Part shown: one piece after another, positions 5,413 through 62,261 of the stretch
Numbering within the stretch: position 1 is the first letter of the stretch
Layout: every line of letters starts with the position of its first letter
Assembly: GCA_026770705.1 (NCBI GenBank)
Contig: JANJGN010000008.1
Coordinates: 60,946,001-61,010,000, forward strand
Direction: 5' to 3'
Length of the DNA: 64,000 nucleotides
Source of the DNA: Isurus oxyrinchus
Taxonomy: Eukaryota
The notes under the pieces: model-generated
Told to the model about the DNA's origin: nothing
What the model saw: only the letters and a program-made list of their open reading frames with translations
Database searches by the model: none
Position numbers and translations under genes: made by a program

Positions 5413-5960
5413 GTCTTCTTTGCAGCAGTCCTGGGCTGGAAGCACCGCTGCATTTTCAGTATGGCGCCCTGCGTGACAAAGCAGTGAGGTGATGGCATGG
5501 CAGGCGAATGAGAGCCCATCTGCCATTGAAATGGCATGTTTCCCGAGAATGCATAATTAATGAGGCAGGATTGGGATGATACGGTGTGAAAAGCCGCCAT
5601 TGTGGCCGGCAGGTAAAACATCCTTTTTCCTGCCCGTTATCGCACTTAGTGCAAATCTGGGACAATTTCACCCAATGTCTTTTCCTATTTACATTGTATT
5701 TCTGTAACTCCCCTTTTACAACTACTGATTGTACTTAACTCCAACTCACAGTGCTGGGGGATTCACTCTGCCTCAGTATTCTCGGCCCTTAGGGGACGTA
5801 GGAGTAAGAATAGGCCATTTAGCCTGTTGAGCTTGCTCCACCATTCAGTATGATGATGGCTGATCATTCACTTCAATGCCTTTTTCCCACACTATCCCCA
5901 TATCCCTTTGTGTCATTGGTATTTAAAAATCTGTCAATCTCTGCTTTAAACATACTCAAT

Positions 5961-7236
5961 GGACAGAATTGTCCCAGATTTGCACTAAGTGTGGTAGCGG
6001 GCAAGTAAAACGACATTCTGCTCACTGGCCGCAATGGCAGCTTTTCACGTCATATCGTCCCAAACCCGCTGCATTAGTTATGCATTCCCGGGAAACATGT
6101 CATTTCGATGCTGGGTGGGCTCTTATTCGCCCACCCAACATCACCTCGCCATCACACTGGGCACCATATTTAAAGTCTAGCTGCGCGCACACATCTCAGT
6201 GCTTCCAGTCCATGACTACTGCAGGGAAGATGTCCACGAAAGGCAAAAAGGACTGCAGCCCCCAGGTTTAGTGACGCATCACTGAATTGTCTTTGGGACA
6301 CTGCAGAGGCCAGCCACAACATCCTCAACCCCCGATCTGGTCGCAGGATGGTCAACAGTGTGACCAACCAGGCTTGCTAGGCGATGAAAGTGGTGATCAG
6401 TGCCAAAGCTGCACAGAAGAAGTTGGTCATCCAATTCAGATAAAGGATGAATGATGTCATTCATCCAGCCAGGGTAAGGCAACCATCTCATCGCTCTAAA
6501 CTCACACACTCAAGCCCATCACACATTCACTGGCATTTCACTCAGTGCCAGCTCAAGGGACATCACCACCCATTCTCACGCACATACGCTCACATCTCCA
6601 TCTGGCCTCATCTCCTCTGGACACTGCGTCCTCAGTCCTCACATTCTTGAGGCCACTTGCACAGATCAACATGTCCCCCCACACATGCCCTGGGTTACCT
6701 TCCTTCCCCAGTGCAGCCCTTGTCCTGCAGCCTCTTCCTTTTTCTGAGGCCATTTCTCCTCCTTCCCCAAGCAAGCCCTAGCCCTGCAGCCATTGAAATG
6801 CCACACACATGTGGCTGATCTGGTTGTTAGAGACCTGCTGTGAGCCCCCCTAAAAGTGATGTGGTGCTGTCTGTGAAGCTGGTGATTGTGAGTGCTGACT
6901 GAAGCAAGGTAAGGCAAACAATCCTTGAATTCCTGAGTGAAATGGAGCTGACAGATGTACATTGCATATGTGCTGTTGTAAAAAATGTCATTTTCCCACC
7001 GACGGAGGTGGACGATCCAGCGGGGGTGGGGTGATTCCAGTGGGCTGGCCTAATAATGATATGCAGATGTGTTACAATGAGGTTCCTGATGTCTGGGTGG
7101 GAAATGCAGCCTGCTATTGGCAGGCTGAGTGGATGATCGCAAACTGGTTTCATGCCGTTGTGAAACCGATTGCGCCATATTGTCCTCTCATGCCACCGAA
7201 CGGGCCTGACGTTGACGGGCATGGAAAATCCCAACC
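5961..7236 (-). mobile_element. Internally deleted, non-autonomous relative of the 531-5673 Harbinger in opposite orientation
   Basis: 5961-6300 is the reverse complement of 5350-5673; 6990-7236 is the reverse complement of 531-760; AAT TSD inside the CR1 3' end; retains Myb exon 1 (about 6230-6473, donor GTAAGG); no transposase. Confidence 0.85.
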
Positions 7237-8791
7237 AATGACTGAGCTTCCACAGCCCTCTGGGGCACAGAGTTCCAAAGATTCGTAGCCCTCTGAGTAA
7301 AAAAAAATTCTCCTCATCTTGGTCCTAAGTGGCTTTCCACATAATTTGAAATTGTGTCCCCCAGGTTTTAGACTCCCCAACCATTTTATCTCCATCTACC
7401 CTGTCTATCACTTTAAGTATTTTTTAGGTTTCATTCACCTCTCAGGCCCAGTTTCCTCAATCTTTCTTCATAGGACAGTCCTGTCATCCTGGGAACCTGG
7501 TGAACCTTCGTTGCACTCCCTCCAAGGCAGTATTATCCTTCCTAAGGTAAGGGGACAAAAACTGCACACAGTTCTCCAGGAGCGGTCTCACTAAGGTCCT
7601 ATACAATTGAAACAAGATTTCACTACTCCTGTATTCAAATCCTCTTGCAATAAAGGCTAACATTCTATTAGCTGTCCCAATTGCCTGCTGCACCTGCATG
7701 TTAGCTGCCAGTGATTTATTGACAAGGACACCCAGGTCCCTTTGTGCATCTACACTTTCTAATCTCTCACCATTTAAGGAATACTCTGCACATCTGTTCC
7801 TCCTGCCAAAATGAATAATCTCAATTTTCCACATTTTGTTCCATCTGCCATGTTCTTGCCCACTCATTAAGTCTTGTCCAAATCCCCCTGAAGTCGTTTT
7901 GCATCTTCCTCACAACATACATTCCCGCCTAGCTTTGTGTCATCGATGAACTTGGAAATATTACATTTGGCCCCTGCATCCAAATCATTGATATATATTG
8001 TGAATATCTGGGGCCTGGGTACTGATCCTTTTGTTACCCGACTAGTCACTGCCTGCCAATGCGAGAATGACACATTTTTTCCTACTCTCTGTTTTCTGCT
8101 TGTTAATCAATCCTTAATCTATGCCGGTATATTAACTCATTAATTTTGCTAACTTACCTCCTGTGGGGGACTTTATCGAAAGCCTTCTGAAAATCCAAGT
8201 ACACTATACCCACTCCCCTTTATCAATTCTGTTAGTAACATCCTCAAAAAACTCCACAGGTTCATCAAACATGATTTCCTATTCATAAATCCATGTTGAC
8301 TATGCCCAATCAGATCATTATCATCGAAGTGTTCATTTATCACATCCTTTATAACAAGTTCCAGAATTTTCCCCACTAATGATGTAAGGCTAACAGGTCT
8401 GTAGTTCCTTGTTTTCTCTCTCCCTCCCTACTTCAATAGTAGAGAGACATTGGCTACCTTCCAATCTGCAGAAACCATTCCAGAATCAATAGAATTTTGG
8501 AAGATGATCACCAATGCATCCACTATCTCCATAGCAATCTCTTTCAAACTCTGAGATATACAATATCAGGTCCTAAGGATTTATCAACCTTCAGTCACAT
8601 TAATTTCTCCATTACAACCTTCTTACTAATTTCCTTCAATTCCTCATCCTCCCTAGTCCCTTGGATCTCTAATTCTGAGAGATTTCTTGCATATTCCACA
8701 GTGAAGTCAGACTCAAAGTAATCATTTAGCTTCTCTGCCACTTCTCTATTCCCCATTATAAATTCTCCTGACTCTGTCTGTAATGGACCCA

Positions 8792-9099
8792 AAACAAAAA
8801 CAGAATTACCTGGAAAAACTCAGCAGGTCTGGCAGCATCGGCGGAGAAGAAAAGAGCTGATGCCTTGAGTCCTCATGACCCTTCGACAGAACTTGAGTTC
8901 GAGTCCAAGAAAGAGTTGAAATATAAGCTGGTATTTCAACTCTTTCTTGGACTCAAACTCAAGTTCTGTCGAAGGGTCATGAGGACTCGAGGCGTCAGCT
9001 CTTTTCTTCTCCGCCGATGCTGCCAGTACTGCTGAGTTTTTCCAGGTAATTCTGTTTTTGTTTTGGATTTCCAGCATCCACAGTTTTTTTGTTTTTATA
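8792..9099 (+). mobile_element. Fold-back Penelope-type pLTR insertion: about 137-bp inverted arms plus 35-bp tail, 15-bp TSD
   Basis: Arms symmetric about AGCT 8926-8929; TSD TCTGTAATGGACCCA at 8777-8791 and 9100-9114; each arm carries a hammerhead-like motif; same family as 61530-61765 and 37803-37860. Penelope assignment is inferred from architecture. Confidence 0.75.
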
Positions 9100-12000
9100 T
9101 CTGTAATGGACCCACATTTGTCTTAGCCAAATTTTTCCTTATTGCATACCTATAGAAGCTTTTACAGTCCATTTGTATGTTTTTTGGTAGTTTACATTCA
9201 TATTCTATTCTCCCTTTCTTTATCAGTTTTTTGGTCCTCCTTTGCTGTATTCTAAAATGCTCCCAATCCTCAGGTTTACTACTATTTCTGGCAACTTCAT
9301 AGGCCTTTTCTTTTAATCTTATTCGATGCTTAACTTCCCTTGTTAGTCACGGTTAATTGACTTTTATTTTTGGGCTTTTGTGCCTTGAAGGAATGTATAA
9401 TTGCTGTAAACTATGCAATAATTCTGAAATGACTATCAATTGCCTGTGTACCGTCATACCTTTTAATGTATTTTCCCAATCCACCTCAGCCAATTTGCCC
9501 TTCATACCTTCATAATTTCTTTTGTTCAACTTTAATGCTCTGACTTCAGTTTGAACTACCTCACTTTCAAAGAGAATGTAAAATTCTATCATATTATGGT
9601 CACTCATCCCTACAGATTCTTTCATAACAACACTATTCATTATCCCTTCCTTGTTGCATAATACTAGATCTAAAATTGCCCGTTCTCTAGTCGATTCCTC
9701 AAAATACTGCTCTGGAATACCATCCGTAACACACTCCAGAAACTCATCCTCCACAGTATTAATGCTGATTAGATTTATCCACCCTATATGCAGATTGAAG
9801 TCACCCATGTTTACTTATTACCCATGCTACATGCTTCTCTGACCTCTTGATTAATACCATGACCCACACTAGAACTACTGTTTGGTGGCCTATAAACAGC
9901 TCCTACCTGCTGCTCCTTGCTGTTTCTTAGCTCCACCCAAACAGATTCCACATTTTGTTCTTCATTTCTGAGATCCTCCCTTACTAATGTACTGATCCTA
10001 TCCCTTATTATCAGGGCAACACCACCTTCTTTTCCTTTTTCCCTGTTCTTCTTAAATGTCGAATATCCTCCTTGAATATTCAGTTCGCAGTCTTGGTCAC
10101 CCAGTAGCCATGTTTAAATAATGGCAGTTACATAATACCCACTTACCTCTATTTGCGTCTTTAAATCATCTACCTTATTGTGAATGCTGAGTGCATTCAG
10201 GTAGAGTGCCCTTAACTTTGTCTTTTTTGTCATTTTTCCACATTCTGAGCCTTTCATCTCGCCTGCCTTCTAATGTCACTTGCTACTTCTCTTTCTATTC
10301 CCAGCTTTACTTCATTCCAATATGAGCTACCCCTCAGGTTCCCACCCCCCTGACAAGCTAGTTCAAACTCTCCCCTAAAGCATAGCAAATCTCCCTGCAA
10401 GGATATTAATCCAGGTCCTGTTAATGTGTAACCCGTACATCTTGTAAGGCCCCATCTGCCCCAGAACCAGTCCCAATGCCTCAGAAGTCTGATGTCCTCC
10501 TGCCTACACTAATTCTCCAGCCATGTGTTCAATTGCTCAACCTCCTTTTCCTATGCTCACTAGCACCTGGCATTGGGAATAATCCCAAGATTACTGCTTT
10601 TTAGTCTTCTTAACTCCCTAAAATCAGCTTTCAGGAGCTCATCCCTCTTCCTACCTATGTCATTGGTACCAATATGGACCATGACCTCTGGTGTTCACCC
10701 TCCCTCAGAAGAATGTCCTGCAGCAGCTACATGGCATCCTTGACCCTGACACTACGGAGGTAACACACCATCCTGGCATCATATTTACAGCTGCAGAAAC
10801 ACCTGTCTGATCCGTTGCCTATCACTATTGATCTCCCACTTTTCTTCTTCCCGTCCTGTGCAGCTGAGCCACCCATGGTGCCACGGACTTGGATCTGGCT
10901 GCACTCCTCTGAGGAACCATCACCCTCACCAGTATCCAAAATGGAAAACTGATTAGCAAGCAAGATAGACTCAAGGAGCTCTTGCACTCCCTGCCTGGTT
11001 CTCTTAGGCTGCCTGGTGGCCATCTATTCCCTGTCTGTCTGCATGTTTTAACCTGCAGTGTGACTACCTCCCTAAACATGCTATCCATATAGTTCTCTGC
11101 CCCACAGATTCACCGCAGTTACTCTAACTGCCGCTCAAGTTTCAAAACCCAGAGCTCAAGCTTCTGCAGCTGGAGACATTTCCTGCAAATGTATTTATCT
11201 AGGACACATGGTGTGTCCATGACTTCCAACATACCACAGGGTGTACATTCCTCTCGGCCACGCTGACCTTCACCTGCCTTACCATAACTATTACAATTAG
11301 AATAAGTAAAATATCTTACCAGTTACTCACCAATCAGCGTCTTCCCCTGTACCAAAGTAAGAGCCAACTATGAGAGGCTGAAAAGGTAGAAAAAGAAAGG
11401 AAGGCCTCCCTCACTGAACTCCCTCAATCAACAAACTCCTTGCTTGACACTCCTTGCACTCAAAGCAGCACTCAGGGCAGACTAAGCAGCACTGAGGATC
11501 CCTGATTCAAGCTTTGAAAACCATTTTAAGCTAGCTACCTAATTAACTAGCTATAGCTGCTCTCAGGGAGCTTGTATACCACTGTTGAAGGCCTGAATAA
11601 ACTTAACTTCTCTTAATTTAAGGAACATTTTTAGTGATTGATAAATTAAAGATAAAAAACTAAACTTTAAACTGAATATAACCTTAAAATTCCCTCAGTC
11701 ACCAGACTCAGCAGCTCTCAGTGCAGAAGATGGCTTTGAGACATGAATGCTTTCTTTTGCATCTGGTAGGCCATCATCATCTGTAGAATAGGACAATACT
11801 TTAGCATCATTGCTGTTAGCATAGCTGGGAAGCTGAGTGTAGCTTTCAAGATGACTTAACTGCAAGAACAATGAGGACTGTTCAATGAAAGACTGATTCA
11901 AAAGAGGAAACTGAAGAGAAACAAACTTTGGACCCTCTGGGACTGGACACTCTGAGGAGCTTGTTGTGACCTCGAAGCACTGTGGGAAGAAACTTCAGAA

Positions 12001-19160: not shown

Positions 19161-22100
19161 GGGCAGAATTTCTCATCTTGTGGGTGGGCATGCACCCGAT
19201 CTGATCGGGAGCGAAATAGTGCGTGATGATATTGGGTGAATGTCCCAATGTCATTGCGCACTCTTGTGATCTTTCAGTCAGCGGGTGCATGTGATAGGTT
19301 GCAGCATGTCTGCTGACAATTAACAGGCTCATTAAGGTCCTTAAGCAATTAATTGATATGCATTTTTTGCTGCCCACTCAAATGTTGGGTTGGCGGGTGG
19401 GCAAATAGGCTAGGCAGCATTTACATTTTTCATGAAGCCTCATAAGACCATAAGACATAGGAGCAGAAATTAGGCCAATCAGCCCATCGAGTCTGCTCCA
19501 CCATTCAATCATGGCTGGTAAGTTTCTCAACCCCATTATCCCGCCTTCTCACTGTAACCCTTTATCCCCTTACCAGTCAAGAACCTATCTATCTCGGTCT
19601 TAAATACACTCAATGACCTGGCCTCCACAGCCTTCTGTGGCAATGAATTCCATAGATTCACCACTCTCTGGCTAAAGAAATTTCTCCTCATCTCTGTTTG
19701 AAAAGGTCTTCCCTTTACTCTGAGGCTGTGCCCTCGGGTCCTAGTCTCTCCTACTAGTGGAAACATCTTCCTCACGTCCACTCTATCCAGGCCTTTCAGT
19801 ATTCTGTAAGTTTCAATCAGATCCCCCCTCATCCTTCTAAACTCCATCGAGTATAGATCCAGAGTCCTCAAACGTTCCTCATATGTTAAGCCTTTCATTC
19901 CTGGGATCATTCTCGTGAACCTTCTCTGGACCCTCTCCAGGGCCAGCACATCCTTCCTGAGATACGGGGCCCAAAATTGCTCACAATATTCTAAATGTTG
20001 TCTGACCAGAGCCTTATAAAGCCGCAGCAGCACATCCCTGCTTTTATATTCTAGTCGTCTCGAAATAAATGCCAACATTGCATTTGCCTTCCTAACTACC
20101 GACTCAACCTGCAAGTTAACCTTAAGAGAATCCTGGACTAGTACTCCCAAGTCCCTTTGCACTCCAGATTTCTGAATTCTCTCCCCATTTAGAAAATAGT
20201 CCATGCCTCTATTCTTCGTACCAAAATGCACAACCTCACACTTGCCCATGTTGTATTCCATCTGCCACTTCTATGTCCATTCTCCTAACCTGTCCAAATC
20301 CTTCTGCAGCCTTCCCGCCTCCTCAATAATACCTGTCCCTCCACCTATCTTTGTATCATCTGCAAACTTAGCCAGGATGCCCTCAGTTCCTTCATGTAGA
20401 TCATTAATGTATAAAGTGAAAATTTGTGGTCCCAACACTGACCCCTGTGGAACTCCCCTAGTCACCGGCCACCATCCTGAGAAGGACCCCCTTATCCCCA
20501 CTCTCTGCCTCCTGCCAGACAGCCAATCTTTTATCCATGCTAATACCTTGCCTCTAGCACCATGGGCTCTTATCTTACTGAGTAGCCTCCTGTGCGGCAC
20601 CTTGTCAAAGGCCTTCTGGAAGTCCAAGTAGATAACATCCATTGGCTCTCCTTTGTCTAACCTACTCGTTACCTCCCCAAAGAATTCTAACAGATTTGTC
20701 AGGCATGACCTCCCCTTGATGAAAGCATGCTGACTTTGCCTGATTTTACCATGAACTTGCAAGTATTCTGAAATCTCATCCTTAATAATGGACTCTAAAA
20801 TCTTACCAACGACTGAGGTCAGGCTAATTGGCCTGTAATTTCCCTTCTTTTGCCTCACTCCCTTCTTAAACAGGGGGGGTTACATTAGTGACTTTCCAGT
20901 CCTTTGGGACCCTCCCTGACTCCAGTGATTCCTGAAAGATCACTACTAACACCTCCACTATCTCTTCAGCTAGCTCCTTCAGAACTCTGGGGTGTAATCC
21001 ATCTGGTCCAGGTGATTTATCCACCTTCAGACCTTTCAGTTTTTGTAGCACCTTCTCCTTGGTAATGGCCACCATACTCATCTCTGCCCCCTGACTCTCT
21101 TGAACTTTGGGGATGTCACTTGTGTCTTCCACTGTGAAGACTGACGCAAAGTACCTATTCATTTCCTCCGCCATTTCTTTGTTCCCCACTACTACTTCTC
21201 CAGCGTCATTTTCCAGCAGCCCAATGTCCACTTTTGCCTCTCTCTTACCTCTTGTATATCTAAAAAAACTCTTGCAATCTTCTTTTATATTACTGGCTAG
21301 TTTACCCTCATATTTAATCTTCTCCCTCCTTATTTCTTTTTTAGTTGTCCTCTGTTGGTCTTTGTAGGGTTCCCAATCCCTTGGTTTCCCACTGCTCTTT
21401 GCCGCATTATATGCTTTCTCTTTAGCTTTTATGCTGTCCCTGACTTCCCTTGTCAGCCATGGTTGCCTGGTCCTCCCTTTAGTATGCTTCTTCTTCCTAG
21501 GGATGAATTTTTGCTGTGTCTCCCAAATTACTCCCAGAAACTCCTGCCATTGCTGTTCCACTGTCTTTCCTGCTAGGCTCATCTCCCAGTCAATTCTGGC
21601 CAGCTCCTCCCTCATGTCTCTGTAGTTGCCTTTATTCAACTGTAATACCGTTACATCTGATTCCAGCTTTTTCCTCTCAAATTGCAGGGTAAATTCTATC
21701 ATATTATGGTCACTTCCTCCTAAGGGTTCCTTTACCTTAAGCTCCCTTATCAAATCTGCCTCATTACACATCACTAAATCTAGAATTGCCTGTTCCCTAG
21801 TGGGCTACACCACAAGCTGCTTCAAAAAGCCATCTCGTAGACATTCCACAAATTCCTTTTCTTGGGATCCAGTACCAACCTGATTTTCCCAGTCTACCTG
21901 CATATTGAATTCCCCTTTGATCACTGTAACCTTGTCTTTCTTACACTCCTTTTCTATCTCCTGGTGTATCTTGTGCCCCACATCCTGACTACTGTTCGGA
22001 TGCCTGTACATAACTCCCATTATGGTTTTTTCACCTGTGCGGTTCCTCAACTCTACCCACACGGATTCTACATCATCTGACCCTACATCATTTTTCGCTA

Positions 22101-29609: not shown

Positions 29610-32600
29610 CTGCAGAGTTCAGTTTTCATGGCGCGGGTCCTGACAGCAGACATGGAAGCGGTAGAACAGGATCCATCCAATTATGCAGTGGGGGTGGGCA
29701 GAAGGTCACCAAACCTGCTGTAAACTGGTGGAATTAGAGGTCCTGCCACCTATAGCAACATCGGTATGGCAGAAGCTAGGAACCCCAGGAGCATGATCTG
29801 GACTTCAGCCTTCCCCTTGGCCACTGACCCGAGGGACATCACTTCGACCACACACTCAACTGCCATGTAGCTCAGACAATACACAGCTCCACAGTTCAGC
29901 AATACTTCCCTGTAGGTTCTCCTCCAAGCTGCTTGGGATTGTGAGGTTGGTGCTGTTCCCCATCAATGGCATCAGGAGACCTTCCTGCTTCACCAAGGTG
30001 CCCTGAACAGAGATTGCAGTAGATGTTAGCAGTCGTGGGGTCCAAGGCACACCTGGGTCCTATGCAGGGAAAAGGATCAATGGCCTCCTCCACACCTCCA
30101 GGGTGAGTAGAATAGTTAGACCAATGTGACTCTCATGAGGTCAACAAGGAGTGTGTCTTTCAGCGAGCGGATGGAGCGGGTAGGCAGCTGAATGCAGCGT
30201 AAGGCACAGCAGTAGATGCATCATGAGTTTTGGTTAAATGTGGATCAGAATTTATAGGTTCATGCTTCTGTTGAAGTACAAGTGACATGAGTGTGCGAGT
30301 GTTAATGGGTCACCCAGGAGGCTCCATTGCCCAACAGACAGGTGTATGCTGATAAGAGGGTCACATGTCCATTGAGATGAGACTATTCTCTCCTTCTGTT
30401 TTCAGGAGAAAATAGTACATAATGCCAAAGAACAGGCAAGGAGTGCCTAAAATAAGGATTCTCTCACCTGCCGAGGAAACAGTGGTGGAATTGGTGGACA
30501 GCAGTGCAGCTGGGTAATCATAGACAGCGATACCAGGGTGCAGAGAGAGGAGAGAGGAGGGCGAGGAGGCCTCGAGCCTGGTGTCAACCACTGAGCGGAA
30601 ACGAATCACATATCAGAATGGGATAGGAAGAGGGTTTGTGAATAAACATTATCCTTTGCATTCTCCAATGCAGACCCTTGCATTCCTAAGGGAGGGTCTA
30701 CTCCATGACCCTGTAGTTCACCTCTGAGGGTGAGGACATGGAAGCCTCAGAGGGTGCATCATCACATCTTTCCCTGGCATGCTCCACCAGCTAAGATACA
30801 GTCTTCTCTGTGGTATGCAATTACATTTAGAATGTCACATTCTGGGAAGCACATCACAGACATGCCGAAGCAGCTGATGGGGGCTATGGCAGTTGGGAGC
30901 CCTGACATTTGGAGAGCTCATGCTGAGCTCCATGTCAGGCCTTTAGTCAAGGCTGCACAGAACCTACTGGAGATGCAGCAAAAGATAGGGGAACATCTGG
31001 CGGAGCTGCAAGAGGCATTATGCAGGCATGTGGGAATGATGGAGGAGCCCATCTAGGTCATGAGTTCTGCCATGTCTCGGGGGGCTGAGTGCTTTGCTTC
31101 CTCCATGGAGAGGTTGGTGACTGTCTTGGAGAGCCAGGTTCAGCAAAGCAGTCAGTGGCTGCTAGATTTGTACTTGGAACAGCATACTCTGGCCATGGGC
31201 TGCATGCAGGTGTGACCAGGCGAGAGGGGGGTTGGGGGGGGCAGTGGTGAGGTGCTTGGACCTCCCTTCAGGTGTCCCTCCTACTCTAGTAGTCAGGAGG
31301 TGCCATCGCACAGCAAGATGGATCAGAAGCACCAGTCATTTAGGGGGCTTCCTTCCTGAGCGCTCCAAGAGTGAGCAGATGCTCCTCAGCCACCGGTGCT
31401 TCCAGTAGCCAAGGCCAAAGAGGATGCACCAGCATTCTGAAGTCCTCCAGACCTCAGGCAATCAAAGGATGGCCACCAAGTAATCTCTGGCAATGGGACA
31501 TCACACTCATCACCATCTCCGCTTCAGCTGCAGATGTTGGGGTTGTATCATGTCGCTGTGACCGTAAGTGTAAATGTAAGAGATTGTTATCACACAAAGG
31601 TGGCATGGGTGTTCCAACATCAGATTTCAATATATGGTGTGTGATTAAACATCTTGTTCACTTTATTCATGTGTGGTGCATGATTTTGTTGGCGGGACCT
31701 GGTTAGCAGGGCAATCACTTTCATGATGAGTGGCAATCTATACGGATGAAGGGTGAGTACTGACATCTCAGTGATTGGGGTGGCAAGGATGGAGTGGCTT
31801 GACTGCTTTCATTGAGGGTTTAATGTCAGGCAGATATGCAGAGGTCATGCGGGCGAAAGGCCTAGAGCCAATTGGTTTTCCAAGGTATTATCTTTGCTGA
31901 AACCTGTTCACAATGAGTGACTCTCATGGGTCTTCCTGTTTTGTCTCTACATGGCCCTGGCATCTGATGCTGAAATTCCGCCTTACAGGCCTTCCTGCTC
32001 TGATACATCCTCCCCATTACCCTCATCCCATGAGGAATGTGGCTCCTCTTTGTCTGAGGCTGGCAAGTCTTCTCCTCTTGTGCAATGTGCAGCAGACTGC
32101 AATAATCCTCAAGACCTTCTGAGGTGCATATTGGAGAGCATTAAGGTCACTGAGGGTGTGGCGATAGAAGACCAGGGTGAGCGCCAATCATCTGTAGATG
32201 CAAGTTTCTGGTTGAGGGCATACACCCAGTGTTCCTGGAACCATGGATGGAGGAAGGGTGTTATTGGATCCTGTGCAACAGCAGCCAGAAGGTGAAAAAA
32301 GGGTGGCACCAGATGCTGAGACCATGAGGCCGGAGACCATCGGGCCAATTCGAGCAATGTTGCATTCTGGAATCTATTGCAAGGGCAGTCCAGGCAGTGG
32401 AACATTATTTTCAACATTCCAGTGGCCTGCTCTGTAACCCTTGTGGAAGTATAGCATTCATTGTAGTGCCCCTTGGTTGGATTTAGAGGATTCTGACTGC
32501 TGTCATCAACCAGGTCTTGAGTGGATAGCGCGTCACCCAGGACCCATCCCTACAGGTGTGCGGGGCCTTGAATAGCTGGAAGTAGCGAATCTTGAGAGCT

Positions 32601-33903
32601 CGCTGGCAACTGAGCACACACCTGGAAGATATGTCTTCTGTGGTCGCAGACCAATTGAACATTAATTGAGTAGAATCCTTTTTGGTTTATGCAAGTTGCA
32701 GGCTAGTTTCAGGGAGCTCTGATTGCCACACACATGCAGTCGATTAGTCCCTACAACCGTGCAAAACCCACGATGGCACCAAAGACAATTGATCTTATGG
32801 CCTGACACTCTGGGCCTGTACTGAAGTGCATGAACTCTCCAGCCCTTTTAAATTGTGCATTCATTACCTCTTTGATGCAGCAATGTGTGGCTACCTATAA
32901 GATCCCTCACATGTCCCGCATGGAGCCCTGGAAAGAGCAGCTGATGTAGAAGTTCAATGTCACAGTAAATTTTAAAGCTACTGGCATTGGGTTTCTTCCC
33001 AGTCCACCCTGAAGGAGAGCACACAGGTCAGTGACTAATTCCCTAGACATACTCAGCCATCTTTAGCATTGCAGTCTGCAGATATGTTAGGTGCATGTGA
33101 TAGATTCTAGGATGCGCTATTGCTCAAATCACACCCTGATTGTCTCCATCCTCACGGTCTCAGCATCTGGTGCTGCCCCGTGTTCACCTTGTGGCCACTG
33201 TTGTACAGGATCCAATAACATCTTTCCTCTGCACTGTTCCTCCATCCATGATTCCAGGAACACTGGGTGTATGAGACCTATTTTACCTCCAGAAGTTGAA
33301 CAGAGGCAGAAGCCAGGCAAAGGTATGTTCTCCACTGGTGACATGGCTCTCAACCAGAAACTTGTATCTACAGATGGTTGGCACTCACCCTGATCTTCTT
33401 TCACCACACCCTCAATGACCATTGATCTTCCCTCTATCACAATTAATCTCCCTCCTCCACTCAATCACCCTCGCTATACCTGCGATCATCCTTGACCTGC
33501 CCCATGATGTTTCTCAGCCTCCTCTCCACCCTGACCAGCAAACTCTCCAAAGTGTAATGACAGGCAGCTCCAAGTCACTCACCTTCCACCTCCAGGACTT
33601 CCTCCCTTGTTCCATGCCAGCTTTACCTGGTCATGAAAGTGAAAGTCCGTGTTTCCCCTGCGTCTCCAACTTAATCACAAAGGTAGCATTTAATTCCAAG
33701 AACGAGTGTTTTAATGAGCGTTCATTGCATGCAAATCCATTACAATTAGCTTGCTGCCTTGTGCCTTTGGCATTGATGTCCTGCATCCGTTCCATTGCCA
33801 GAAGAATTTGACGCACCTATACCATTGTCAGGAACTTGAATCTTCAGTTCCTGTCCTACTCATCGCCCCTGCCTGCTCCCTCGGACAGCAGTGAATTCCC
33901 CCC
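29610..33903 (-). mobile_element. Degenerate full-length Harbinger (Myb gene on +, transposase on -)
   Basis: Myb exon 1 about 29866-30102 (APQFS..SL; WVLCREK.N.LL; donor GTGAGT), exon 2 from 30406, exon 3 to about 31570; transposase about 32350-33130 on - (MSRELVTDLCALL..NPMPVALKFTVTLNFY..SFQGS; MLKIMFHCLD). Confidence 0.75.
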
Positions 33904-37802: not shown

Positions 37803-37860
37803 AAAGGGTCATGAGGACTCGAAACGTCAACTCTTTTCTTTTCCACCGATGCTGCCAGGC
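37803..37860 (+). repeat. Short fragment of the fold-back Penelope family containing the 3' half of the hammerhead
   Basis: aagggtcatgaggactcGAAACGTCaactcttttcttttccaccgatgctgccag. Confidence 0.75.
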
Positions 37861-37997
37861 CTCTCTTTGACCTCCATTCCAATAGTTAGTGTGTAATTTG
37901 AGAGTAACTTAAGCAGACCCTTTTCATTACGGCGAGGTTCACTGATTTTGAGGCTGGAATGAGTCTTAAGTGTAACAGGAGCAGATCATATTCTCGT

Positions 37998-38124: not shown

Positions 38125-38699
38125 ATCAAGCCCAAAATACGGGTGTCTCATGTCGTGTTATCAATCGTATTAATTTAAATCCTTGTTTCCGTTAATTTTC
38201 ATTGATCTCATATTGCCAACATTCACAGGTCTTGGCGTTCTAATTTAGGATTCACATCCAAAAAGTAAACATTTTTAAGAATAAGTCTTTTCAAAATTAA
38301 ATTCAAATCGACCATACAAGTGAGTAAGAAATACAAACAAGAGCACCTTTTTTTTAAGAATTGGTAACCAACAATGCAAGGTCCATTAAGCAGCTATATA
38401 ACCATTTTCTACGAGTGAGCAACATCATGGGCAGAGGGGAGTCTCACCTAAAGTCACAAAATTAAGTTGGCGGCCTCAATTCAGAGACTTAAATATGGAA
38501 ATGAGGTTTGCCAGCTGAGTTGCCTCCTTTCTCCACACTCCCAGGTTAACTTAGGTACACTGCAAATTGATTGTGTAAGTTGATTGTGTAATTGAATGTG
38601 TAATTGATTGCCTAATGTCCTGACTCAAGTATACGTCAATTTTATGATATAGAGCTGTATTGCTTGCAAGCACATGTTGTGAGGAGGACACTAATAACA

Positions 38700-40373
38700 T
38701 AACATATTGGGGAACACAGGGTTTAGTGAGAGGGAGGAACTGAAAGAAATCAGTATTAGTAGGGAAATGGTGTTGGGGAAATTGATGGGATTGAAGGCTG
38801 ATAAATCCCCGGGGCCTGATAATCTACATACCAGAGTACTTAAGGAAGTGGCCCTAGAAATAGTGGATGCATTGGTGGTCATCTTCCGAGATTCTATAGA
38901 CTCTGGAACAGTTCCTACAGATTGGAAGGTAGATAATGTAACCCCAATATTTAAAAAGGGAGATAGAGAGAAAACAGGGAATTATAGACCAGTCAGCCTG
39001 ATGTCAGCAGTGGGGAAAATTCTAGAGTTCATTATAAAAGAGTTATTAGCTGAGCACGTGGAAAACAGTGGCAGAATCGGACAGAGTCAGCATGGATTTA
39101 TGAAAAGGAAATCATGCTTGACAAATCTACTGGAATTTTTTGAGGATGCAACTAATAGAGTTGATGAGGGGGAGCCAGTGGATGATGTTTATTTGGACTT
39201 TCAGAAGGCTTTCGACAAAGTCCCACATAAGAGATTGGCGTATAAAATTAAAATGCATGGGATTGGGGGTAGTGTATTGAGATGCATAGAAAACTGGTTG
39301 GCAGACAGGAAACAAAGAGTAGGAATAAATGGGTCTTTTTCCGAATGGCAGGCAGTGACTAGTGGGGTACTGCAGGGATCAGTGCTGGGACCCCAGTTAT
39401 TCATAATATATATTCATTATTTAGGTGAGGGAATTAAATGTAATATCTCCAAATTTGCAGATGACACAAAGCTGGGTCGGAGGGTGAGGTGTGAGGAAGA
39501 TGCAGAGATGCTTCAGTGTGATTTGGACATGCTGAGTGAGTGGGCAAATGCATGGCAGATGCAGTATAATGTGGATAAATGTGAGGTTATCCATTTTGGT
39601 ATCAAAAACAGTAAGGCAGATTATTATCTGAGTGGCTATAAATTGAGAGAGGGGAATATGCAATGAGACCTGGGTGCCCTTGTACACCAGTCGCTGAAGG
39701 TAAGCATGCAGGTGAAGCAGGTGGTAAAGAAGGCAAATGGTATGTTGGCCTTCATAGCCAGAGGATTCGAGTGCAGGAACAGGGATGTCTTGCTGCAATT
39801 GTACAGGGCCTTGGTGAGACCACACCTGGAATATTGTGTGCAGTTTTGGTCTCCTTATCTGAGGAAGGATGTACTTGCTATAGAGGGAGTGTAGCAAAGG
39901 TTTACCCGACTGATTCCCGATGGCGTGACTGACATATGAGGAGAGATTGAGTCGATTAGGATTATATTCGCTGGAGTTCAGAAGAATGAGGGGCGATCTC
40001 ATAGAAACCTATAAAAGTCTAACAGGACTAGACAGGGTAGATGCAGGAAGGATGTTCCTGATGGTGGGGGAGTCCAGAACCAGGGGTCACAGTCTGAGGA
40101 TATGGGGTAGACCATTTAGGACTGAGATGAGGAGAAATTTCTTTACCCAGGGAGTGGTGCGCCTGTGGAATTCGTTACCACAGAAAGTAGTTGAGGCCAA
40201 AACATTGTGTGGTTTCAAGAAGGAGTTAGATATAGCTCTTGGGGCGAAAGGGGTCAAAGAGTATGGGGAGAAAGTGGGAGCAGGCTATTGAATTGGATGA
40301 TCAACCATGATCATGATGAAAGGCGGAGCAGGCTTGAAGGGCTGTATGGCCTACTCCTGTTCCTAGTTTCTAT
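38700..40373 (+). mobile_element. 5'-truncated CR1 LINE (RT half of ORF2)
   Basis: 319-aa ORF 38707-39666 (KSPGPD, NYRPVSL, YLDFQKAFDKVPH, GVLQGSVLGP, SKFADDTKLG) plus C-terminal fragments and 3'UTR. Confidence 0.95.
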
Positions 40374-53927: not shown

Positions 53928-56324
53928 GCACTGTATAATGGGAGGCAGATTCACAAGGCTGTTTTTCCAGCTTTGCTGAATGTTACAAGTACCCCCATTT
54001 TAACTGAAACCAAAAATCCCTTCCAGGCCAACTGGGCAAAAAAAAACTTGAATGAATACTGTAGCTATTTATTTATAACCTTCTATTCAATTGTACTAAG
54101 AATCAATCAGAGAAGTTACACTGTAAGCTGAGTGGGTTCAGCTAAACTTTCGTCCATTTAGAAATGATTTGGTATTTTTGAAGCTGGAAGTCAGAAGAAG
54201 ATATTGATATTATTGTTGGAGGTAACAAGAGCTTAGTAGATTCTCATGAAGACAGGCAGAGCAAAATAAAGCAAAAGTTGTGGCAAGTGTGCTGATAGTT
54301 GCTTAAGGCATTCTTTGTCTACCAGGTCTTTCAACTTGCAAACAGCAACAGCAACTACGAAGATCTGCAGAAAAAAAAATGTCAGCACGAAGAGTGCAAA
54401 CCTCCTAGGAAGAGATAACAAATGCTTAAAGTAAACACATGAGCAATAGAAATACTGTTGTTGCTTTGGGTTCCAATGAATTGTGCAGAGCTTGTTTACA
54501 ATAATCTGATTTACAGCTGGTTTGTAGAAGTACAAATATGTTTTGTTACTAAAGTTACAGATGTGCTCCATTATCGATGTAGCCAGCCTACCAACAAGAC
54601 TTAATGTGATCTTTCTTTTAACGTGTACTTTCGCAACAGCAAGTAGTGAAAGAAACTCTGCAAGGTAAACAATACATTGTCCAGTACCTGCTGCGCTGTT
54701 TACAAGGATTATGAAAGTCCCAAATGCAAAAATGTCTCTTTTAGCTCCATAGTGACTCCCTATTACCTTTCTATCCCCTCCCTCATTGCATGAATGATCT
54801 CCAACAGCCAAGCAAAGAACTGGATCGTTAAGTTACAGAATATTACTTGACCATTGAAGACTGGCACTCATATGGCAGCCAGCAGCAAATTTGTTATTTA
54901 ATCTTTGTGGATTCAACTAAACTTTTATGCATTTAAGGGTTTTTTGGGTGTGGCAGTGAGAAGAAAATAATTATATAATACTAATAATATTATTGAAGAT
55001 AGGAAGTGTTTAGGATGTTTGGCTTCTCCATTAAGCCAGGGGTGTCACAGTCCAGTTGCTGACATACTTGATGGTCCCAGTAGCTGGATCTTATGTGCTG
55101 AGGGTCAACTCATTTGTCTGGATGTGTGGCAGATCAGGAGGTCCAGTTCTAATGACATCACATTGGGAGATTATTGCTATCCCACATGGAAAGTTGAAGA
55201 AATCTCAATGGGTTAGGTGTGTATATGAATGTAGATTAACTTTTGTTGTTTATTGGCCGCAAAATTGAACAAATTCAAAAAATTGATGAGGGAGGAGTTT
55301 GGCGATGTGTCCATTGATCCTGTGCCCATTGCTTCCAATGCATGCAGCACACCGATTTTGCTGCCTGCTAATTTAAATTATTGTACCATGCAGCAATGCT
55401 AAACACACTGTTGAGTGGCTGTGTATCTAAGCATAAGGCGCAAAGGAGTGAGGGGCAACACAAGCCAAAGCTATCCCACACGAATTGAAGCCCACCTGTA
55501 CCTCTTAAAGAGATATATTCTGGCTGGAGTAGGTGCTGAAAATCATTCAACAACCGATCTGACCTTAGGAAAACAGAAGAACATGGCAGAGAGCAAAATT
55601 CCAGGATTTTCCAACACTGCACAGGATGCCTTGGTGTAGGAGATGGAATGAAGGGAAATGTCATCTATTGACAGGGACCAGGAGGCCCTCCAGACCAACT
55701 TTATGAAAGAAATGGGACCAGATAGTTGTGGCAGTCAATCCAGAAGTCTAGACCTGCGGGACAGGATATGATGCAAAAATGTTCAATAACTTCAGGATTC
55801 ATCAAGATCGGTGAATGCATCTCTAAAAGCATAACCTACCATCTGCACCCTCACATTCAGACACAGCTCAATGCACCACACACCCATCACTCACCTACCA
55901 CCAATATCTATCAAGCATGACTTATACCTCATATTCAAAGCTTCATTTCAGCTTCACACGCTTAGCACTGCAATAAGTCTCATATCCATATCTCACAGCT
56001 TGCAGGCACTGCAGCTCTTGGAGTATGACAGCTACATCTCACAAAAACATTGTACCACACTTAATGAAAAACTTTTCTTACAGGACAGATGGCACATAAC
56101 CAGATGTAGCAGTACTAATAATCAGGGGGCAGGTAGGGCAGCATATCCTTAGTCTGATGGAAGAGACAGTGATCGCCATCATTGGAGGAACCATGATTGA
56201 GGCAGTGACTAGTGAAAAAGTATTTTGTGTCTGTCAGTAGAAGACACATTATATTCCAGAAGTAAAGGGTACTAAGAGGCTAATAAGATTGAGGAACTTA
56301 AATTAATTAATATCAGCAGAAAAG

Positions 56325-59567: not shown

Positions 59568-61529
59568 AAGGGAAATTATGTTTAACAAATTTGAGGATGT
59601 AACTAGTTAGGTACAAAAAGGAAATTGATAGATGTAGTATACTTGGATTTCCGAAAGGCATTTGATAAAGTGCTGCACATAAAGCTAATTTGCAAGATAA
59701 AGGGATAATGTATTGGCATGAATATAGGTTTAATTAATGGACAGAGGGCAGAGTAGGGATAAATGGGACATTTTCAAGTTGGCCGGTTGTAACTAGCGGA
59801 GCGCCACAAGGATCAGTGCTGGGGCTATTTACAATTTATGTTAATGACTTGGGCTAAGAGACCTAGAGTAATGCATTTAAATTTGTTTATAATGTAAAGC
59901 TAGGTGGGAATGTAAGTCATGAGGAGGACACAAAGAGACTGCAAAGACACAGGTTAAGTGAGTGGACAGCAAAGTGGGGAAATGTGGGGAAGCGTGAGGC
60001 TCTTCATTTTGGTAGAAAGAATAGAAAAACAGAACACTTTTTCAAAAAGACAAGAACCTTCTAAATGTTGATGTTCAGAGAGACTTAGGTGCACTTGTAC
60101 AAGGAACACTAAAAGGTAGCATGAAGATACAGAAAGCAGTTAGGAAGGTAAATAGCATATTGGTCATTATTGCAATAATAAGGAAGTCTTAGGCTACAAT
60201 TATATAGGACTTTGGTGACACCACACCTGGAATACTGTGCTCGGACTTGGCCTCCATATCTAAAGAAGGACATACTTACTTTGGACCAGTACAGCAAAGG
60301 TTCATTAAATTGGTGTCTGGGATGAGAATGTTGGACTATGCTGAGAAGATGAGTAAATAAGGCTTTTACTCTCTGGAATTCAGAAGAATGAGAGGTCATT
60401 GGAAAATACAAGATTCTAAAAAATGCTTAACAGAGTAAGCACTTGCTTCTCCTGGCTGGGGAATCTAGAACACAGGGCATAGTCTCAAGATTACGAGTTC
60501 ATCATTTAGGACTGAGATGAAGAGAAATTTCTTTACTCAGACAATTGTGGAAGCTCCATTGTTGAATATTTAAATCTGAGACAGACAGACTTTTGGTCTG
60601 CTGGGGAAAAAGGGATATGGGGAGCAGATAGGAGAGTGGAGTTGAGGTCAAAGATCAACTGTAATCATATTGAATGGTGGAGCAGACTCAAAGCCCATAT
60701 GGTCTACTCCTGCTTCTTTTTCTTATGTTTTTATGTAATATGGTTAAACCTCCTTCTCACTTTCCACTTCCCTTTCAGTGTCCTTTGACTTGAAAACTGC
60801 AGATGGTGTAGGCATGCATCTTTCACTTCCCCCTCACTCATCACACCCTTACCCTGTGCCTTTCTCCTTTCGGATACCCAAGAACTGCAACCTGGCTTGG
60901 TGGAAGAGAAAGAGGTAGAAGATTGGGAAATCAGTGGTGAAAAAGAAGCACTGCCACCCATTCTTATACTTGCAGATATAGACACTGGGCATACTTTGGA
61001 GGATAGTTTAGAGGTGAGATCTGCACATGATGAGACACCAGGATGCATGGCCTGTAGCTGGGTAAGGTGGAAAGGTAACAATCATGCTAGAGGGAAAGGC
61101 AATACACAAGTTATGCTGCAGAGGGTTCTGATGAGCAATTTAATGGGGCCAACTACAGAACAAGGCTGGTGGATACGTAAGCCTGCATAAAGCTTGCTGT
61201 CAATGTGAATAGAGATGTGCAGCTCTAACTTGGCACCAGGCTTTGCGCAGAGCTTGGAGCCTATCCTTGGCAGCGTGGAAGTGGTGACCAACTCCATTAG
61301 CATACTCGAAGATTCATTCATGTGCAGTGTCTGATGGTCAGTTTCCATTGTGGTACAAGTAGAAGCCATCAAATGTCTGGGTGCTGCAGTGAAAGCTCAG
61401 AATCATCCTCCAAGACCATCTGCATTCTCCCCCATTGAAAGTCAACAACCTTTCACCAGCTGTGATGCATCCATTAGGGTAGAGCACTGCATGGCATCAC
61501 TAGGGAAGGCAAACGAACAATGCACAAAA

Positions 61530-61765
61530 ATAAAAACAAAAAAAAAAACTGCGGATGCTGGAAATCCAAAACAAAAACAGAATTACCTGGAAAAACTCAG
61601 CAGGTCTGGCAGCATCGGCAGAGAAGAAAAGAGTTGACGTTTTGAGTCCTCATGACCCTTCGACAGAACCAGTCGAAGGGTCATGAGGACTCGAAATGTC
61701 AACTCTTTTCTTCTCCGCCGATGCTGCCAGACCTGCTGAGTTTTTCCAGGTAATTCTGTTTTTGT
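61530..61765 (-). mobile_element. Fold-back Penelope-type pLTR insertion: about 94-bp arms plus 41-bp tail, 11-bp TSD
   Basis: Arms about 61571-61664 and 61673-61765 around a short loop; TSD AATGCACAAAA at 61519-61529 and 61766-61776; hammerhead-like motif in each arm. Confidence 0.75.
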
Positions 61766-62261
61766 AATGCACAAAATGGATCATTTGACCTTTGTAAGCA
61801 ATATGACATAGTTTGGTTTATAGTTGGTTTGAAATATTCATTTTGAGGTCACATTTATTTTCACATTGTGGCCAAGCTCACATTGTGATCATTTAACATC
61901 AGAGGGATGAGAAAGTGTGGGACTGTTGGCGAATGGGGAGTTGGATTCACATTTACTTATATCACAGTCAGATGACTCAATCATGGATAACTTAGCTAGA
62001 AAGATGCTGCACTGGTTGCCCCCTTCCTTCCTCATCCTCTTCCTCCTCCTTCTCCTCAGCTGGTTACTGTACAGCTGTTGGAAAGGGCTGTGTCCTCATG
62101 GTGGCAAGGTTCAACAACATGCAGCAAACCACCATAAACCATGACACACACTCTGAGTACTGCAAGGCTCCCCCAGAGCATTCCAAGCAGTGGAAGCATT
62201 GTTTCAGTGCACAAACGGTCTGCTCTAATACTTTTTAGTGGCAGCTTGGCTTTTGCATTAT

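Follow-up and report, generated by a model that had tools for sequence, protein, structure and literature searches.

The 64,000-nucleotide stretch of Isurus oxyrinchus DNA analysed here (contig JANJGN010000008.1, positions 60,946,001 to 61,010,000; referred to below as the window) contains two short palindromic insertions, the 8.8-kb and 61-kb units. Their sequence places them as short insertions of a young, autonomous Penelope-like element (PLE) that is present as over 100,000 repeat copies. Each unit consists of two head-to-head copies of the 3' end of the pseudo-long terminal repeat (pLTR), and both units probably arose when the two DNA strands were cut about 14 bases apart and RNA was copied onto both ends. 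This reading rests on the identity of the pLTR to that of an intact reverse transcriptase (RT)/GIY-YIG open reading frame (ORF), on the presence of exactly one tail in nearly all head-to-head insertions sampled, on the length of the target-site duplications (TSDs), and on the fact that either arm can be the longer one. Both window insertions are ordinary dead copies.

A search of the 4.98-Gb assembly with one window arm led to the locus L031, where an open 918-amino-acid ORF (L031:3612-6368) lies between two pLTR copies in partial tandem (1.9 kb at 98.6%). Identity between the window arms and the L031 pLTR is 94-98%. The ORF matches Pfam RVT_1 at residues 408-571 (E 2e-06) and GIY-YIG at 821-855 (E 9e-04), both below the curated cut-offs, and a PDB sequence search with it gave 0 matches at E 0.01. 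It contains DKG and YIDD motifs, a CX4CxxC linker (CPRKRCNTC at 784), and a CxxC within GIY-YIG (LVYCIRCSQCGLLYIG at 821) with histidines downstream, which is the CCHH feature as PMC8557442 defines it. For Neptune/Nematis-type elements, that paper gives DKG, YIDD, the CX2-5CxxC linker, and GIY-CxxC-YIG. On these motifs, the parent is an endonuclease-containing (EN+) PLE with a Neptune-type linker. A 30-mer from the end of the pLTR matches the genome exactly at 55,772 + 55,349 = 111,121 sites, compared to 0 for the control. Since the repeat is attached to an intact 918-amino-acid RT/GIY-YIG ORF and occurs in so many copies, the window units are insertions of an autonomous element rather than a miniature inverted-repeat transposable element (MITE) or a separate retrozyme. 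A preliminary description of the window had called for a full-length partner with this pLTR, and had offered extreme short Penelope insertions as one of two readings; the L031 ORF, together with the variable centres and long duplications described below, bears that reading out.

Positions in the pLTR are counted from the tail end (0 = L031:6887), so that the hammerhead motif spans -137 to -99, the predicted ribozyme cut would leave an end at -102, the tail-less arms end near -36, and the AUG lies at +35. At the pLTR 3' end (L031:6840-6887), the two arm-end sites are separated by about 35 nt and close on similar U-rich motifs.

The 8.8-kb unit is flanked by a perfect 15-bp TSD (8777..8791 and 9100..9114, plus strand). 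Its tail-less left arm (8792..8931, minus strand) copies the pLTR from about -175, a 5' end determined by eye, to -36 at 96% identity to L031, and its tailed right arm (8932..9099, plus strand) runs from -167 through a one-sided tail at about 9064-9099, at 95% identity. The inverted arms align over 135 bp (96%); of the two, the tail-less one is longer by 8 nt. The 61-kb unit lies within a perfect 11-bp TSD (61519..61529 and 61766..61776, plus strand). Its tailed arm (61530..61669, minus strand) starts with the tail at 61530-61570 and continues to -136, at the first edge of the hammerhead; a 2-nt centre junction (61670..61671) separates it from the tail-less arm (61672..61765, plus strand), which covers -131 to about -38, and the inverted arms match over 94 bp at 97%. 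The 61-kb unit (-136/-131) belongs to a class ending at -137, and the 8.8-kb unit (-175/-167) extends past that boundary. The two units are 93% identical over 132 bp, and their fold-back centres differ. The earlier account of one family with true palindromes, one-sided tails, long TSDs, and different centres was accurate.

To place these units among their relatives, we collected insertions at ≥83% identity in DNA around the first listed exact matches in C1 (0-6.3 Mb; 586 kb in total). Of 145 insertions, 142 were complete; 71 of these were head-to-head and none was tail-to-tail. Exactly one tail was present in 67 of the 71 head-to-head insertions, no tail in 3, and two tails in 1. By end type, 55 combined a tail with an end at arm-end site A, and 12 combined a tail with a shorter end. 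A duplication was detected in 63 of the 71 (13-16 bp in 54; called range 12-19 bp). The duplications are 66% A+T, compared to 57% in the flanks, and the first base is T in 34 of 63. Arm lengths range from about 60 bp to 2.9 kb, and the short units form the end of this continuous series.

These properties bear on two readings in which the units would be elements in their own right. A DNA-transposon MITE would also be short, palindromic, and of high copy number, but the called duplications are 12-19 bp long, the ends are asymmetric, the centres vary, and the parent encodes RT and GIY-YIG, which leaves this reading with practically no credibility. The C1 sample shows neither symmetric terminal inverted repeats nor a fixed short duplication or uniform length, and the fixed palindrome centre with short fixed TSD that had been proposed as the mark of a MITE was not seen. 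A separate non-autonomous, retrozyme-like ribozyme retroelement, or copying of the palindromic unit itself, could draw on the abundance of short units (both arms ≤150 nt in 35 of 63 simple pairs) and on the report that retrozymes derive from PLE pLTRs (bioRxiv 10.64898/2026.07.22.740005). Against it, the arms run continuously into the ORF, the centres differ with no common master centre apart from a recurrent end at -137, the units contain no tandem monomer arrays, the hammerhead cores are broken in all four window arms, and no arms end at the cut site. This second option of the preliminary description is already largely refuted, and we regard it as very improbable.

How the inverted arms were made is informed by comparing their 5' reach, which was possible for 63 of the 66 simple one-tail pairs. 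The tail-less arm reached further by more than 10 nt in 24 of 63 pairs and the tailed arm in 12, and the two ended within 10 nt of each other in 27. Reach was correlated between paired arms (rho 0.86; 0.91 in the 27 longer pairs). Non-majority bases common to both arms occurred at 0.0061 per site; shuffling the pairs 1000 times gave 0.0006, and never more than 0.0022. The arms of a pair differed at 0.020 per site compared to 0.031 in shuffled pairs. At 34 clean centre junctions (42 were tried, 2 skipped, and 6 dropped, 1 without tail and 5 with a centre gap >12 nt), 7 were blunt, 12 had 1-4 nt of microhomology, and 15 had inserts of 1-10 nt.

Long palindromes are known to undergo central deletions, and an alternative is self-priming followed by such a deletion. 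A single complementary DNA (cDNA), or the antisense RNA proposed in PMC3846280, would fold back on itself to serve as template, and the later deletion would make the centre asymmetric. The roughly tenfold excess of shared private variants, the correlated arm lengths, and the 27 of 63 pairs with nearly coincident ends are all in line with such copying. However, plain snap-back requires that the first-made strand carry both the tail and the furthest 5' base, and therefore fails in the 24 of 63 pairs whose tail-less arm is longer; the 8.8-kb unit likewise has the longer arm on the tail-less side, by 8 nt. A central deletion at a later stage could save the model, but asymmetry shows no dependence on age: it was unrelated to the divergence between arms (rho 0.02, n = 62), and strong asymmetry was present in 2 of 10 pairs whose arms are identical. 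Moreover, loop-free centres at -137/-137 and -140/-140 exist. These counts disfavour the self-priming proposal, which we consider unlikely, and the term fold-back, as used for these units in the preliminary description, is probably the wrong picture. Two-nick reverse transcription from two RNA start sites accounts for the pattern better than snap-back.

The 5' ends of the short copies cluster at the first hammerhead base. In the sample, 37 of 115 exact cores were flagged as not extending upstream; by eye, 7 of these belong to a sister variant that goes on slightly further, and the remaining 30 end at -137 to -142. Among 34 short pairs, the arm reaching furthest ended at -137 in 10, at -140 in 8, and within -137 to -142 in 21, and 0 of their 68 arms ended at the predicted ribozyme cut (-104 to -100). 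Genome-wide, 10,526 copies break before -137 and 50,266 continue, although inspection of 30 such breaks gave 21 true breaks and 9 sister subfamilies. Breaks elsewhere number 2,245 at -135, 1,178 at -139, 688 at -141, and 1,782 at -140, the last for two of three possible bases. We conclude that -137 is a real peak and that -140 is over-represented at the start of C1. The class starting at -140 is about four times denser at C1 1-7.6 Mb than genome-wide.

The -137 boundary is kept across subfamilies whose upstream sequences differ, and solo copies begin there, adjoining their own duplication. Sister subfamilies (L124, L127, L133, L140-L142, and L148-L150) have the pLTR in common only from -137 onward and differ just upstream. 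When compared with the initiator consensus, several of them are initiator-like at -137 (pyrimidine-pyrimidine-AGTT). A splice acceptor at AG|TT was rejected for this family as the explanation for the end at -137; no upstream exon is common to the solo copies inspected, and several of these lie directly against their duplication. A GT-AG joint ending at the hammerhead was absent among the RNA contig matches listed, a result that carries no weight.

The RNA start is likely at -137, the first hammerhead base, and a start inside the pLTR is plausible because the D. virilis Penelope pLTR has an internal promoter (PMC2377424). That the shortest arms were produced by run-off at this RNA start is the least secure step of our reading, and we favour it by a modest margin of confidence. 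The pile-up at -137 might instead reflect an RT pause or a preferred joining point, a doubtful though serious alternative that concerns the run-off step only. Hairpins of 5 bp can be drawn by eye just upstream of -137 in two subfamilies, ends are spread from -142 to -70, and the excess of G that a copied cap might leave is absent among the matches listed; a pause is harder to reconcile with the same boundary in subfamilies of different upstream sequence, with solo copies that start there beside their duplication, and with one locus that re-copies a 50-nt unit ending at -137. At that locus, L152 (C1:11648179-11651207), head-to-tail repeats of a unit of about 50 nt (-137 to -88) with the hammerhead motif occupy about 1400-1600, a pattern suggestive of run-off at -137 and a fresh start of copying, and they are a possible seed of a retrozyme-like array. 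At C1:500835-502015 and 1449305-1449716, a short piece from -139/-142 to site A precedes a jump into the ORF start, after which comes a second pLTR that ends at -138/-123, a layout compatible with run-off and then a template jump.

In the mechanism that we favour, the element protein would cut both DNA strands with a stagger of about 14 bases. One cut end would prime at the upstream RNA start site, leaving no tail, and the other about 35 nt downstream, leaving the tail. Both cDNAs would copy the same stretch, probably from a single RNA because the arms share private variants, and end joining or a template jump would then connect the two new 3' ends head to head. The shortest class, which includes the 61-kb unit, would come from priming in the 5' pLTR and run-off at the RNA 5' end, the first base of the hammerhead; copying of the 8.8-kb unit would have stopped about 30-40 nt past that base. 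The resulting copies would be dead by-products. In support of this scheme, a PLE protein cuts and extends both strands in vitro, two internal start sites define the tail, product length follows the template 5' end, and ribozyme mutants still insert (PMC11167929).

Several points weigh against this reading. PMC11167929 detected no difference between the two strands in their in vitro start site, so that a strict one-tail rule is not predicted. The sample was picked by exact short matches and is biased to young, two-armed copies, and the -140 peak, seen in 8 of 34 sampled pairs, is less pronounced across the genome, which implies that the sampled region is not fully representative. The shared variants are also compatible with snap-back copying or later gene conversion. 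At -137, the main subfamily is not a clean match to the initiator consensus, and no excess of an extra G, a possible copied cap, precedes -137 among the matches listed. Among pLTRs running into the ORF start, only 5 of 10 begin at or downstream of -149, and the rest would need a strand jump. The RNA 5' end was not observed, as the RNA data are assembled contigs only; in contigs from 4 of 23 runs the repeat is covered deepest over -137 to 0, and contigs cannot show starts, strand, or level.

Hammerhead cleavage is probably not needed to make the short insertions. The preliminary description stated that each arm contains AGTT-CTGTCGA-A-GGGTC(atgag)GACTC-GAAA-C-GTC-AACT; this string is the family majority, and the core is disrupted in all four arms. 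In the 8.8-kb unit, GAGG replaces GAAA in both arms (A14G and A15.1G), and the left arm motif (8855..8893, minus strand) also has G12A and G16.2A; the right arm motif lies at 8962..9000 on the plus strand. In the 61-kb unit, the left arm has G12A and the right arm C15.2T, and the latter lacks the 5' end of the motif, as had been recognised, because it begins inside the CUG box. Palindromic stem III (ACGT), which had been assigned to the arms generally, is intact in one of the four, the 61-kb left arm. Judged by the known core requirements of hammerheads, all four are predicted to be inactive. An Rfam scan gave no hammerhead match at E up to 1, and only miRNA-hairpin matches below their thresholds.

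The family majority sequence retains helix I, helix II, the extra base after position 9, and palindromic stem III, and helix II forms in the fold of the parent sequence. Its core reads CUGUCGA (U6) where CUGANGA with GAAA would be canonical, with U at position 6 in 69,914 copies genome-wide compared to A in 105. By these counts, the family has spread with a non-canonical ribozyme core, which suggests that cleavage is dispensable or that U6 is tolerated. The motif monomer folded no better than shuffles, a comparison that is not informative for a dimer-type ribozyme. A-to-I editing was rejected as the source of the A>G changes that cluster in the 8.8-kb unit, as there was no family-wide excess of A>G over T>C (p 0.87, 0.64, and 0.53). 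A related, older family whose helix II differs is represented by L027 and by C1:881927 and 2844808; the L027 copy retains a canonical CUGAUGA box, with GUU where GUC is expected. The 308-nt 8.8-kb unit folds into a single hairpin (-253 kcal/mol, z = -34; none of 100 shuffles folded as well). Thus, the suggestion that read-through would give a long double-stranded RNA (dsRNA) hairpin holds for the fold if the unit is transcribed, but there is probably no working ribozyme for it to mask.

The layout itself has precedents. An inverted, truncated copy with a one-sided tail has already been published for PLEs (PMC8557442, PMC3846280), and the EN+ PLEs with an inverted 5'-truncated copy and a one-sided tail of 30-40 bp (Fig. 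2 legend of PMC8557442; Pen2a_Av in PMC3846280) have the same layout as here, sharing the head-to-head pLTR, tail at one end, TSD, partial tandems, and single RT/GIY-YIG ORF. pLTRs from partial tandems, direct or inverted, are an EN+ PLE trait, and 71 of the 142 complete sampled insertions are inverted. Unlike the examples described in those sources, arms here are often 100-170 bp without ORF, copies exceed 100,000, and duplications are about 14 bp rather than the 9-10 bp of the rotifer examples. Hammerhead pairs 100-700 bp apart on opposite strands have been noted in metazoan PLEs (PMC4209133); compared to the minimal type I hammerheads described there, the family core is CUGUCGA and the window arms have further core changes.

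In the Poseidon element PAc of Anolis carolinensis, RT likewise starts at two internal sites, which lie downstream of the hammerhead and are separated by about 35 nt; both strands are cut and extended, and ribozyme activity is dispensable in vitro (PMC11167929). In contrast, the tail here is U-rich and lies in the 5' UTR (AUG 35 nt after), whereas that of PAc is AC-rich and lies in the ORF; the CX4CxxC linker of the L031 ORF is absent from Poseidon; and the genomic copies here pair the two start sites, one to each arm. Non-LTR retrozymes, as treated in bioRxiv 10.64898/2026.07.22.740005, concern tandem units; the units here are head-to-head with broken cores, rather than head-to-tail with complete hammerheads. 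The one-tail count and the run-off boundary were not found in the literature searched, which excluded subscription papers, Repbase, and bioRxiv supplements. The layout is known, and the mechanism is what we infer. In LINE-1 twin priming, both nicks prime and an inversion forms inside one duplication from two non-overlapping parts, whereas here both arms copy the same stretch.

Elsewhere in the window, a 59-bp internal pLTR fragment (37804..37862, plus strand; 93-95% to the L031 pLTR) contains part of the hammerhead and is not inverted, and neither a partner arm nor a duplication was seen by eye. The 8.8-kb unit is inserted in an old CR1-like long interspersed nuclear element (LINE) fragment (flank match 47% identity, E 5e-22). 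A preference for CR1 targets was rejected, since 15 of 84 insertions compared to 218 of 1188 control windows showed no enrichment. CR1-like LINE fragments lie at 19536-21804 (minus), 38698-39666 (plus; RVT_1, E 9e-29), and about 7500-8550 (minus). Older inverted-repeat pairs at 5503-6131 and 32145-33420 (80-89% complementary) are unrelated to the pLTR family.

How PLEs form inverted repeats and tails is called still undefined in PMC8557442, and the population of copies described here is an integration record that bears on this question. From the one-tail rule, the stagger of about 14 bp, the shared variants, and the -137 end, exact predictions follow for the in vitro system already available. 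The many perfect hairpins would, if transcribed, be a large potential source of dsRNA. With evenly balanced confidence, we propose more generally that PLEs may normally integrate by paired reverse transcription, in which a protein dimer would cut with a 14-nt stagger and, using a pair of start sites within one RNA molecule, make one cDNA per DNA end. A strong-stop-like run-off at the first hammerhead base, the RNA start, would then result from priming in the 5' pLTR, and tens of thousands of stubs, in a family of >100,000 copies with a non-canonical core, would map the RNA start and the cut geometry.

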